DNA of 63,901 bases, the filler included, from Bonamia ostreae (lineage: Eukaryota): assembly GCA_040357525.1 (NCBI GenBank). It is 45 parts of 45 records of this genome, joined end to end, with 100 filler letters (N's around TTAATTAATTAA, not from the genome) between each part and the next. Parts side by side here need not be neighbours in the genome. Positions count along the whole stretch, not along the records: positions 1 to 1,330 come from JBDODL010002020.1; positions 1,431 to 2,759 come from JBDODL010002021.1; positions 2,860 to 4,188 come from JBDODL010002022.1; positions 4,289 to 5,617 come from JBDODL010002023.1; positions 5,718 to 7,045 come from JBDODL010002024.1; positions 7,146 to 8,473 come from JBDODL010002025.1; positions 8,574 to 9,901 come from JBDODL010002026.1; positions 10,002 to 11,328 come from JBDODL010002027.1; 37 more parts are not named here. One strand, given 5' to 3'. Below the pieces are notes generated by a model, which was not told the DNA's origin, did not search any database, and was given only the letters and a program-made list of their open reading frames with translations. Below are positions 1 through 63,901 of the stretch, piece after piece. Position 1 is the first letter of the stretch. Each line of letters starts with the position of its first letter. A program made the translations under genes and the position numbers.

Positions 1-232
1 AACTCATCTTGTTTAAATTTTGAAAATAATAAAAAATAAACTAAAAAAAAAAACAAATAACTAATTAAAAAAATAATATGAAAAAAAGCAACCCAAAAAA
101 TAACAAAATAGTAATCATTTCTCTACAAGCAGTAATCATACCCACTATACAAAATACATCCTACTAGAGCCAAATATTATCAACTGCTAAAAAAACAAAA
201 AATTAATTAAAAACCAAATTTAACAAAAATAG

Positions 233-1330
233 AAATGCAAAACGTTTTAGATCTATTCACAGAAAGACATAACCGAGTCCTGTTCTTATTGATGTTGGAA
301 ATGAACTTAGTGTCTAAAAACAAAGTGAGCCATCTTATCGGGAATATAATAAGAGACGTTTTAAAATACATCCTCAAAACCGGTAACTAAAAATTAATCC
401 AATTTAGCCTATCAACACAAAGACCTTCTTTGTTGCAAAATCTTGGCAGACGTTGCACAAACCATTTTTTCTGAAAACGACTGCATTTATGTTTACAAAA
501 CTTTAAAAAATTTAGCCGAAAATAAATTCTTCGCCGGTTTACAAATCATTTGATTACCACAGAATGCTTTTCGAAAGTTTTTTTTGTAATTTTTCGCAGT
601 AATTTGGGACGAGGAATCTAAAGATAATGCACCGTTAAAAGTTTCGCGATCGAAATCGATCTCCAACACAAATGAAAATGTTTTAAACCGTTCGAAAATT
701 TTGGATCACAAAGAAAAACTTGACAAAATTATTAAAAAATTTAGTTTTTAAATTTACTATCAAATTTATTTTGCAATTTAATGGAATCGAACAGATTTTA
801 GAACACAATTTATCGTTTATTAAAAATTAAAGACGATAATTTGGTCATTAAAATTTTGTAGTTTCGTCGATGATAATAAACGGCATAGAAACAGAAGATA
901 TAAAAAATATTTTGAGCAATATTTTAAATTCTGTATTCGAATCACCGGAAACACAAAAAAACATTTCTGAAATGTTAAAAGTTTTTATTAAAATTTTTAA
1001 GCATTATTTGGATGAATTCAATGAGACTAAAAATGTTTTCGCTGTTAAAATTGAAAAACCTCCAATTTTCAATTCAAAAAATAAATGGAAATTTATGAAG
1101 CGGCCATGTTTAAACGACCAATTTTAAATTAGGTGCAAATTATTATTTGAACAAAGAAAATGCAAAAATTAAATTTCAGTTACCAAAATCATTTCGAGGT
1201 GTTAGGAAAAGTCATTTGGACCAAGATATCCGTTTCTTTAATGGCGAATTTGTTGTTTTAATGGTTCACGCAGTTTTTTAATAAATTAGAAAAATTTTAA
1301 ATTTGCTTTAAAATTCGAAAAGACAAAACA
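233..1330 (+). CDS. Protist multi-exon gene fragment of unknown function (possibly SBF2-like helical region followed by a PH-like region)
   Basis: Frames can be joined through tiny GT-AG introns 383-407 (25 nt) and 1108-1132 (25 nt), giving MQNVLDLFTERHNRVLFLL...AYQHKDLLCCKILADVAQTIFSE and, further on, KRPC|ANYYLNKENAKIKFQ. Exon structure at 490-860 is ambiguous and the domain call is a weak resemblance. Confidence 0.55.
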
Positions 1331-1430
1331 NNNNNNNNNNNNNNNNNNNNNNNNNNNNNNNNNNNNNNNNNNNNTTAATTAATTAANNNNNNNNNNNNNN
1401 NNNNNNNNNNNNNNNNNNNNNNNNNNNNNN
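1331..1430. other. Artificial contig linker N44-TTAATTAATTAA-N44 (first of 44 identical linkers, about every 1.42 kb; last at 62486-62585)
   Basis: Every gap is exactly 100 nt with the same central palindrome, which gives stop codons in all six frames. Flanking contigs decrease monotonically from 1330 to 1316 nt. Separate internal N10 gaps lie at 22137-22146, 40491-40500 and 53170-53179. Confidence 0.99.
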
Positions 1431-2053
1431 TATAAGTTTTACACTAGCTTCAATGTTTCAAGAAAATTCACTCAATAAATATTTTCCTCCTTTTAAAAAA
1501 GTCACAGATTTTGAAATAGCCGCGTTATGATTAGTGAATTGTGTCCAAGTGTATTGATTGGCAACATAGCTGATGTATACTAAACATTGACCATAAATGT
1601 GCGTTCATATTAGGAAGATCTTAAAGCTTATTAGTTATCACCCTAAAATTATAGACAACATTTCTAAAAGTACAAAAGAATAGAAAATCAAACATGTTGG
1701 ATTTGCAAGAGGAAAAAAAATCAATGGTTGAGATATAATAGAATCAATTAGAATGTCAATTTTTAGTAAATTTGTCCTCATAGAAGAGTTTTAAAGAGCG
1801 TGCTCATCAAGATTTGATAACACATTTACAAGACAATGCAGTAATTTCCGATACATGTATTACAGACACTCTCTCTGTCTCATAAGAACGTTTTGGTAAA
1901 TTCTCAATATAGTAGTTTATCGAAGAGTTCCGACTCAAATATAGCAGTGCTTTAGAGTTTGAAGTAGCCCTTCCCTGGATCCCAGATCCCACCTTACAGC
2001 TGTTCTCTGCCCTCTCGGGATGCTCTGAAGGTTCTTATGGCTTAGGATTGCGT

Positions 2054-2715
2054 CCTATCTGTGCTTTTTGCAAGTAAAAAGGTCATTGGATTGGCGAATG
2101 TTTTGACCTTATGAAAAAATATTACCATGATAAATCACAGCAACATTATTTTACAGTGTTTAGAAATGATAGGGAAGTATTTGTTTTGCTCTAGACTCGT
2201 GATGTGTAAGGGTAAACGTCCAGTTCTGTTAATTCTATGAAGGATTAAAATCCCTTTTGTCCTGGGGATTTGTTTCATTCAATTGTCCTGGTAAAGTTAA
2301 ACCTATTCAGATTTTGAGAAACGCTGTCCATGTTTTGTTGCCAGAGAATGTTTGCCTTTATATGAGCATACTTCTGTTGGTGGGTTAGTCTTATCACAGA
2401 ATGTGGAGCTACATGCAGGTTCCTTTACATATACTTTATCTGAAATGAGATTTAGTTATTGGGTCAGATGTCTGTGGTGTTTAATTAACTCTTCTTGTTC
2501 GATGCGTGTCATGTTGCTAGGCATCGACTTACCTGTTGGCAACGTTGCACCGGATCTCACAGTATTAAAGAAAATTACTTTCCAATGTCGCGCCCGAAGA
2601 TGAAGAGGATAACTTATATCTAGCCTTTGATATTATTGGGGCAAAGATCAGATGAAAGGAAATGAAAACCGATCTTGTTCATATCATTAAATTGACCTCA
2701 TCAACACTTTCCTGT
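2054..2715 (+). mobile_element. Degenerate Ty3/gypsy LTR retrotransposon, gag zinc knuckle and protease region (host)
   Basis: CAFCK*KGHWIGEC at 2060-2101 is a CX2CX4HX4C knuckle. It is followed by GFVSF..KPIQILRNA..LLPENVLPL, LHILYLK*DLV and LLGIDLPVGNV, typical of aquatic-invertebrate gypsy gag-pro. Multiple stops and frameshifts. Confidence 0.75.
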
Positions 2716-3088
2716 TTGACTTTGATGAGAGTTCCTGTGAGAACAAAAATAAAAACTGANNNNNNNNNNNNNNNNNNNNNNNNNNNNNNNNNNNNNNNNN
2801 NNNTTAATTAATTAANNNNNNNNNNNNNNNNNNNNNNNNNNNNNNNNNNNNNNNNNNNNTTTTTGGGAATTTTTTTTGTTATTTTCTTTTGAATCAAATC
2901 TCCGTAGTCTTTTAACAATAACTTTAAAATTGGCTCATTTTTTAAAAACAGTTTAATTATATCGTTTTTTTTGAATTTCAAACATTTGCAGATCAATTTA
3001 TCGAAATTTGCTAAAATCCAGTTGATATATGTACTTTGTTTTTCCGAAAAAATGGAAAGCTGAAAATAAATCACTTTAATAAAATTAG

Positions 3089-62440: not shown

Positions 62441-62585
62441 CTAATTATTTTGTCAGAATGAAAATTACTGTTATTTTTGAACACGNNNNNNNNNNNNNNN
62501 NNNNNNNNNNNNNNNNNNNNNNNNNNNNNTTAATTAATTAANNNNNNNNNNNNNNNNNNNNNNNNNNNNNNNNNNNNNNNNNNNN

Positions 62586-63178
62586 AAGCAAAAAACGCCG
62601 TCAATGATCTTGAAAATGGATTTTTCTAATCTGAACTCAATATCAACGACTCCAGTTGTCACTGTTCGGCTATGAAAAACGTCTTCCTTCGAAGGAACAT
62701 AACCCTCTTCGGCGATGAAATCGATTCGGTCCAAAAAGTATTCTGCACAATCCAAAAGCTGATACCGCCAACTATTTTCAAACGTGCACATAAATCCTTT
62801 ATCGGACCTCCAGAAGAGCTTCACCAGCTCAGCTGTCTCCTTAGAGAGTTGGCGCGTAGCAGGAGTCTCGAGAAGGGCGCGTTTCGCGTAATCCTTCGCG
62901 GGGTCGGTGCGCGTCCCTTCCACTTCGAGCTCGTAGAGACGATCAGACCATCGGAGGATGGTCTTGACGCATTCGAGTGTGTTCTCCACCACACACATCC
63001 GAAATTTTTTGCGCTCTTCGATGGGATAACCGTGTTGGAACCGGTTCACCATCTGCTTGATGAAGGTGCTCTTCCCGCTTTCACCCGGCCCCAGCAGAAG
63101 CAGTCGGTACACTGATCGTGGGTGTCTAAATTCTTCGTTTCGATCGCTCGAAGTAATGCTGCTGAACTCGCATCCCAT
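62586..63178 (-). CDS. Heterotrimeric G-protein alpha subunit, 5' part (protist)
   Basis: MGC lipidation start, LLLLGPGESGKSTFIKQM (G1), helical domain with YQLLDCAEYFLD and YVPSKEDV, switch I RTVTTGV, then FKIID before the contig end. Confidence 0.95.
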
Positions 63179-63300
63179 TTTGAATTTTTATCAGGTTTTA
63201 TTTAAGCTAAATAACGTGAACCTTAATTTAAGCTTTGAAAGTAAAAGTTGGGTTTGGATAAAGTTAGCAAAATATACCGAAACAGCGTGTTTAACGAAGA

Positions 63301-63805
63301 ATGCAAAAAATACCGCAAAAAATGCCGCAACGAAAAACGAGTGGAAAAGAAGAAAACAAGCAGAAAGAAAGAAAGCCGATTGTTTGGGATGAACCGGGAG
63401 AGGGGAGCAGGTACATGTTGATGGGTTGGCTTTTTAATTTTGAAGAAGGCTTAGAGATGGTGGTCCCGTATTTTTACGAGTTCAAATCTTTTGCGAAGAG
63501 GAGATGGTTTGGCAGAACAGTTGAAGACGTGTTTGAAGCCGAATTTTTTAATTTCCGAAAAGAAAATTTTGTTTGAACAATTTAAATTTCGTCTCTAAAA
63601 ATGAAGGATAAACAGATCGAAAACAAAGAAATCAGAATTAACGATCGAATTGTTGAAGGAAATTACAAATTTAAGGACAACGACAGATTGTCTCATCGAT
63701 TGCATTATCATGAAAATCCTGTCCTGTTTAATTTTGAAATTCAAAGAACAAGCGATGTCAAAATCATCAAAGAAAACGACGATTATTTTGCAGTTGTAAA
63801 ACCTT
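63301..63805 (+). CDS. RPUSD2: RluA-family pseudouridine synthase (RPUSD2/Rib2/Pus9-like), 5' part (protist); intron 63571-63606
   Basis: GLEMVVPYFYEFKSFAKRRWFGRTVEDVFEAEF, KDNDRLSHRLHYHENPV and IIKENDDYFAVVKP match the RPUSD2 N-terminus (GLRkV.PY...f.ty.KgRW.g...vF..EF; H.HEpPV; vdKP). Confidence 0.9.
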
Positions 63806-63901
63806 GTTTATACGATTTCCTTTTAGATTCTCGCTTAATCAATTTTTTAAATTTATTTTAATCAATTTTTAAGTTTTTGTAATTTATCAATTCGATTTTA
63901 T

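Follow-up and report, generated by a model that had tools for sequence, protein, structure and literature searches.

The stretch of DNA analysed here (the window, positions 1 to 63901) consists of 45 contigs, which fall in length from 1,330 to 1,316 bp and are joined by 100-base spacers of the form N44-TTAATTAATTAA-N44. The contigs are the consecutive records C2019-C2063 of a length-sorted assembly, G000, which holds 10,293,246 bases in 7,503 contigs. Since the assembly is sorted by length, contigs that adjoin each other in the window are biologically unrelated. Exons of a protist type, including pieces of a TOP3A-like topoisomerase, a COQ8 kinase and a G-protein alpha subunit, lie here among contigs of an animal type, one of which carries a hAT transposase (Table 1). 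We think it highly probable that the window represents assembly contamination, that is, oyster host DNA in a draft assembly targeted at a protist.

Each contig was given an order-3 Markov score, for which 12 large contigs of G000 from outside the window served to train the protist model, while the host model was built by leave-one-out on the window's other class. The scores were bimodal. That is, 29 of the 45 contigs were host-type (-48 to -17), 13 were protist-type (+12 to +59) and three lay between, and the two classes alternated randomly along the window (17 runs vs 19 expected). The initial annotation had named 12 of these contigs as protist; all 12 scored protist-type, and one more, c7, had been overlooked. 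It had also described them as CpG-keeping and homopolymer-rich, and this was borne out by the medians of the protist and host classes for the observed/expected (o/e) CpG ratio (1.49 vs 0.79), TpA (0.59 vs 0.83), AA/TT (1.39 vs 1.05) and A/T runs of six or more bases per contig (7 vs 3), although these contrasts describe the split and are not a test of it, the classes themselves being defined by composition. The GC content of the two classes overlapped (26-40% in the protist class, 30-38% in the host class). The composition score thus separates two genomes where GC content cannot.

The score was then applied to sequences outside the training set. When 20 further large contigs were cut into 128 pieces of 1,320 bp, none of the pieces fell below -15, in the host-type range, and two fell below zero. 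All 43 stretches of at least 700 bp without a predicted gene in the large contigs scored above zero, on the protist side, indicating that non-coding DNA of the protist does not account for the negative class. All 17 ubiquitin-, actin- and L1-family loci of G000 scored protist-type, and all seven C1q and B-box loci, which are of animal type, scored host-type. The two halves of a contig agreed in sign in 44 of the 45 window contigs, the host halves being scored with a model that included them.

The share of host-type contigs depended on length. It was 0/37 at length ranks 1-550 (12 of these 37 had trained the model), 2/11 at ranks 551-1450, 33/51 at ranks 1451-2100 (45 of these 51 being this window), 7/8 at ranks 2101-4100 and 12/16 beyond. 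Weighted by length, host-type DNA amounts to about 4.4 Mb, or about 43% of the assembly bases (35-51%, an interval that covers sampling only). The protist part is about 6 Mb as assembled, a figure that is not a genome size because the assembly may be incomplete. As all 37 sampled large contigs are protist-type, the assembly targets the protist, with the host filling the short tail. The window had been taken for the small-contig tail of a mixed assembly; the tail is indeed mixed, and the description is refined to an assembly aimed at the parasite, in which leftover host DNA forms the tail.

Table 1. Features of the window, with composition class and score where reported. Introns of c3 and c18 were fixed by homology; those of c15 and c17 are predictions.
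Contig	Feature	Position	Strand	Class (score)	Remarks
c1		1..1330		protist-type (+40)	No family match above cut-off
c3	TOP3A-like topoisomerase III-type gene fragment	3089..4108	+	protist-type	Toprim 43.9 bits
c3	GT-AG introns	3268-3360 (93 nt), 3531-3551 (21), 3663-3870 (208), 4001-4023 (23)	+		
c5	Exon, mollusc protein family without Pfam name	6283..6561	+	host-type (-27)	Atlas first hits 0.91-0.92, commonest phylum Mollusca
c7		8574..9901		protist-type (+32)	
c10		12856..14181		between (+8.7)	Leans protist (5th percentile of held-out protist pieces +6)
c11	227-codon cysteine-rich frame	14282..15606 (frame 14282-14962)	+	protist-type	Hydrophobic end; no family match
c12	Immunoglobulin I-set-like exon	15708..16007	+	host-type (-17)	E 1e-4, below Pfam cut-off
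c13, c14, c15		17132..21305		protist-type (+35, +13, +59)	
c15	Long frames; predicted intron	20640-20610 (intron, 31 nt)	-		
c17	SNM1-type DNA-repair metallo-beta-lactamase	23116..24113	+	protist-type	DRMBL 42.7 bits
c17	Predicted introns	23584-23614 (31 nt), 23861-23885 (25 nt)	+		Ab initio only
c18	COQ8/ABC1 kinase fragment	24611..25419	-	protist-type	
c18	GT-AG introns	25152-25130 (23 nt), 25018-25000 (19), 24909-24887 (23), 24780-24760 (21)	-		All begin GTT
c20		27102..28425		between	Halves opposite in sign (+12, -20)
c25	Open 440-codon intronless coiled-coil frame	34219..35538	+	between (+1.9)	
c32	Separase C-terminal exon	44481..44729	+	protist-type (+54)	Peptidase_C50 E 3.5e-6, just under cut-off
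c33	hAT/ZBED1-like transposase C-terminus	46201..46701	+	host-type	Dimer_Tnp_hAT 69.6 bits
c40	Protein-kinase-like exon	55987..56580	+	protist-type (+56)	Pkinase 42.7 bits
c44	Two frames, probable membrane protein	61170..62485	-	protist-type (+15)	No family match
c45	G-protein alpha subunit exon	62588..63187	-	protist-type (+40)	G-alpha 129 bits; PDB matches about 100 bits

Up to four of the longest open reading frames of each contig were scanned against Pfam at the curated cut-off. Matches above it were found in 5 of the 13 protist-type contigs and in one of the 29 host-type contigs, so that the proposed contrast between gene-dense protist contigs and a gene-sparse rest was upheld only in part. 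In the host-type class, the hAT element named by the initial annotation was confirmed on c33, where the best 8 of 13 hits were molluscs. Three other labels found no support: six-frame read-through of the four contigs tested for gypsy elements (c2, c10, c20, c24) gave no Pfam match; the proposed short interspersed elements had no Rfam or ARAGORN match, and three B-box-like matches stood against 1.36 expected by chance; and the long frames of c15, which may be CPSF1-like by motif, had no Pfam or PDB match. No homologue of the exon on c43 was found. The matches of c5 and c33, together with the seven C1q and B-box loci, place the host-type contigs in a mollusc. That this mollusc is an oyster is well supported, the host being named only by the run label 'oyster metagenome'. 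For positions 19982-29848, 24 sequencing runs are listed as matching, most of them labelled organism A and four labelled oyster metagenome. Seven of the 24 share 0.21-0.28 of sequence words with this stretch (shares under 0.2 were disregarded), values in line with those runs containing only host contigs. The hAT contig as a whole (45583-46900) is nearly free of CpG (o/e 0.12, the window minimum), as expected for a long-methylated host element.

The protist genes are interrupted by tiny introns, as the initial annotation had proposed. Eight introns of the COQ8 and TOP3A-like genes could be fixed by homology; six of them are 19-23 nucleotides (nt) long, the other two measure 93 and 208 nt, and seven of the eight begin with GTT. 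Removing the GT-AG introns raised the alignment score of COQ8 to its homologues from 251 to 560, whereas a CT-AC control stayed at 251. For the TOP3A-like gene the score rose from 194 to 513, against 327 in the CT-AC control and 419 in a GA-AG control. The best homologues of the COQ8 fragment are 57-60% identical to it, and the 120 homologues listed include none that is named as a mollusc. In a tree built quickly from 71 rows, the fragment had a long branch and fell outside the starred groups of animals and fungi.

Spliced forms were also seen on L015, a protist contig of 10 kb that lies outside the window. Run X4 covers the genes of this contig and leaves a 2-kb intergenic stretch bare, and its contigs show gaps of 19, 19, 20, 20, 21, 22, 22 and 37 bases, all eight of which can be placed as GT-AG. 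From the coverage pattern we would guess that X4 is RNA; none of the matching runs is recorded as RNA. DNA run X2, from a study other than that of the best-matching run, carries the unspliced form of L015. When introns were predicted ab initio by a gene model without a built-in length peak, 113 of the 404 were 19-22 nt long, and 169 of the 186 donors of short introns had GTT; this finder is crude, since it joins genes via false long introns, found three of the eight X4 gaps and missed most of the TOP3A-like gene. It predicted a coding fraction of 39-45% on large contigs, which is indicative only. Over the 10 kb of L015, X2 and X4, which are independent of each other, both differ from G000 at the same bases, about 20 in number, which indicates that the parasite is polymorphic between samples. 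Within each of two presumed RNA contigs on L015 (7303-8380 and 8773-9570), some of the skipped introns read GT-AG on one strand and some on the other, so that transcripts of opposite orientation may abut or overlap there.

Mikrocytids have introns of 16-17 nt, and introns of 18-21 nt are cited for chlorarachniophyte nucleomorphs (both in PMC10245619). Mikrocytids resemble the present protist in that they are ascetosporeans with very short spliceosomal introns, but they differ in that the introns here are 19-23 nt long with a tail beyond 200 nt and are accompanied by a mitochondrial genome and COQ8. The nucleomorphs show nearly the same modal size; here the introns belong to the main nucleus of a parasite, and longer ones occur too. 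The GT-AG introns of Bonamia ostreae are alike, but the passages on B. ostreae in PMC11069148 and PMC11946409 give no intron length, whereas the mode here is 19-22 nt with GTT(T) donors. The protist's introns would thus be of a size between those of mikrocytids and ordinary introns. No paper on Bonamia intron length was found in a search that left subscription papers outside.

We then considered which protist is present. The ribosomal protein L1 encoded on contig C2136 of G000 (outside the window; protist-type, +40) is four residues longer than PDB chains at one site (15 against 11); the segment consists of F, two residues and GMP, a signature that hangs on one 22-nt GT-AG intron model. Retaria sensu Cavalier-Smith, among which Endomyxa and Ascetosporea are counted, are recognised by an F inserted in L1 and by three further residues, for example GAP or GMP, inserted two positions after it (PMC6133090). 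As far as this insertion tells, the protist would be a retarian. The last record of the assembly, C7503, is an AT-rich mitochondrial scaffold with bacterial-type ribosomal RNAs (rRNAs), a transfer RNA (tRNA), cox1, cox3, cob, atp1 and atp6. Its small-subunit (SSU) rRNA is of bacterial type and 1,368 nt long. The conserved motifs of cox1 are intact when TGA is read as Trp, and the gene is readable without RNA editing. None of 14 long frames on the scaffold was recognised as a nad gene. In animals, atp1 is not known from mitochondrial DNA, and the mitochondrial rRNAs are much shortened. With its atp1 and its 1,368-nt SSU rRNA, the scaffold is not of metazoan type and probably belongs with the protist contigs. 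At 16106-18493 of the scaffold, a 558-codon frame that matches nothing in Pfam is present twice owing to a direct repeat of about 2.35 kb.

Passages of PMC11069148 describe mikrocytids as lacking a mitochondrial genome, report none recovered in paramyxids, and list rRNA, tRNA, ATPase, cox and cob genes for that of B. ostreae; paradinid mitochondrial genomes retain nad genes (PMC11946409). B. ostreae, which is associated with oysters, thus has the same mitochondrial gene classes as the present scaffold (PMC11069148, PMC11946409). Mikrocytida are ruled out by the scaffold and by introns of at least 19 nt. By exclusion, the protist is very likely a haplosporid (Haplosporida) and probably B. ostreae itself, in agreement with the initial annotation, in which a Bonamia-like haplosporid was the best fit. 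Its central claim, that two genomes are interleaved, likewise stands for a mollusc and an endomyxan protist on out-of-sample composition, protein matches, the retarian L1, the mitochondrial gene set and read alignment.

These findings can be considered against other explanations as follows. If a single genome with two compartments had given rise to all contigs, those of host type would be the parasite's own non-coding or repeat-rich DNA; the overlapping GC ranges and the reported richness of ascetosporean genomes in non-coding DNA (PMC11069148) speak for this. However, the gene-free stretches of the large contigs all lay on the protist side, and host-type contigs bear C1q, B-box, immunoglobulin-like and mollusc hAT sequences, so that we consider a single genome very improbable. 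It is slightly less probable still that oyster DNA was integrated into parasite chromosomes by host-to-parasite transfer. The opposite signs of the two halves of c20 would fit such a junction, but no piece of the large protist contigs was host-type and the halves agreed in every other contig of the window.

A mixture may also be real with a protist other than Bonamia, such as another haplosporid (Haplosporidium, Minchinia) or another endomyxan or retarian. No species-level test succeeded, and the L1 signature spans all Retaria including Endomyxa. In contrast, runs labelled oyster metagenome are among those matching the window stretch, two actin primers of B. exitiosa (PMC10893247) each fit one actin of G000 at all but two positions, and the mitochondrial evidence given above, both in its gene classes and in the nad genes, points away from mikrocytids, paramyxids and paradinids. 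We therefore regard a protist outside Bonamia as unlikely. A further explanation adds a third component, in which c25 and its relatives would stem from a virus-like element, from a further symbiont or from an element endogenous to the host. The intermediate scores of six contigs (-12 to +12), and their long intronless frames at 71-80% identity, favour it; coiled-coil coding sequence, however, is compositionally biased, and no viral hallmark was found in Atlas, IMG/VR or Pfam. We find this third component doubtful, though far less remote than a single genome, and it concerns one of the 45 contigs and leaves the contamination of a protist assembly by its oyster host unaffected.

Several results weigh against this explanation, or against the identity proposed for its two partners. 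Three of the 45 contigs (c10, c20, c25) fall in neither class, and protein evidence ties the host identity to only two of the 29 host-type window contigs (c5, c33). A tree joining the COQ8 fragment to animal rows was not rejected by the approximately unbiased (AU) test (p-AU 0.59) on 37 rows, which name no invertebrate (of the 120 rows, 38 near-duplicates and 12 short matches were left out of both trees, and 34 unnamed rows more for this test). The B. ostreae actin-1 primers had no site in eight actin-family loci (for one primer, in the whole of G000), the actin contig C820 ending just upstream of the target. A search of G000 for nuclear rRNA gave none, the only SSU match being mitochondrial. 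In rhizarians, the junctions of polyubiquitin carry an insertion of one or two residues (PMC3014934); the insertion is missing at the single junction found (C1173), and losses of it are reported in other rhizarians. Finally, nothing aligned to L015 from run X8, labelled oyster metagenome, or from the 1.38 Gb of raw reads in run X22, labelled organism A, a result that is weak alone, as contig filters give false zeros.

Taken comprehensively, G000 very likely represents an intracellular haplosporid parasite, probably Bonamia, whose draft assembly was built from material of infected oysters with incomplete removal of the host. The parasite would assemble into longer contigs and the leftover oyster DNA only into short, mostly non-coding contigs, and sorting by length would then mix both sets into the pattern of the window. 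Cleaning by GC, depth and database similarity is the usual route for uncultured ascetosporeans (PMC11069148). Such cleaning may leave host fragments behind, and we infer that host DNA survived it because its GC overlaps that of the parasite and gene-poor fragments give few database matches.

Ascetosporean genomes have been obtained from infected tissue by in-silico subtraction, with contamination acknowledged and up to 4.7% of genes flagged (PMC11069148). Those assemblies likewise retain residual host DNA after subtraction. Unlike that gene-level figure, the host share here is counted in bases, at about 43%, and lies mostly in gene-poor short contigs unseen by gene-based screens. Host DNA in a parasite assembly is an artefact of a known kind and ordinary as biology, but it is larger here than expected. 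A host tail of this size would lower the coding density and inflate the size of any such assembly, and genome size, coding density and gene-family counts taken on the whole of G000 would be biased. Most G000 contigs under about 1.5 kb are oyster, which means that short-contig findings need binning first. According to PMC11069148, genes are sparse in ascetosporean genomes, which contain a large amount of non-coding DNA that is unexplained. About four tenths of G000 would be oyster, and the parasite part of about 6 Mb would be compact with 19-22-nt introns. We tentatively speculate, at somewhat less than even chances, that if the published ascetosporean assemblies have similar host tails, the gene-sparse picture, as opposed to the compact genomes of microsporidia, is partly an artefact and some lineage-specific gene gains are host genes. 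No paper from 2024 on that deals with host contamination of a Bonamia genome assembly was found in our search, which had subscription papers outside its range.

The frame of c25 has relatives on four G000 contigs at 71-80% identity and on a fifth at 44% protein identity, all intronless (L106, L107, L108, L109, L115). The composition of this family fits neither genome and may reflect a third component. Searches of it gave only generic coiled coils in Atlas, nothing in IMG/VR, and coiled-coil families or nothing in Pfam, and a single-sequence fold of c25 reached a predicted local distance difference test (pLDDT) value of 37. The family has a globular N-terminal part, and the copy on C407 carries one in-frame stop near position 1927 of L115.

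Some minor features were also observed. On C1173 (L111), at about 1680-1963, the second ubiquitin unit starts with F and not M, and a 23-nt GT-AG intron interrupts the first. In a host-type contig, 32846-33088 is a 27-nt tandem repeat whose translation in one frame is a threonine-rich repeat. The longer non-coding stretches beside protist exons are AT-rich tandem repeats with units of about 44 and 57 nt (44178-44478, which precedes the separase exon, 55514-55714, and on L077), and the tail of long introns may come from local repeat expansion. A piece of 30-42 nt from the 208-nt intron of the TOP3A-like gene (3756-3797) is found again on contigs C152 and C1072 of G000.

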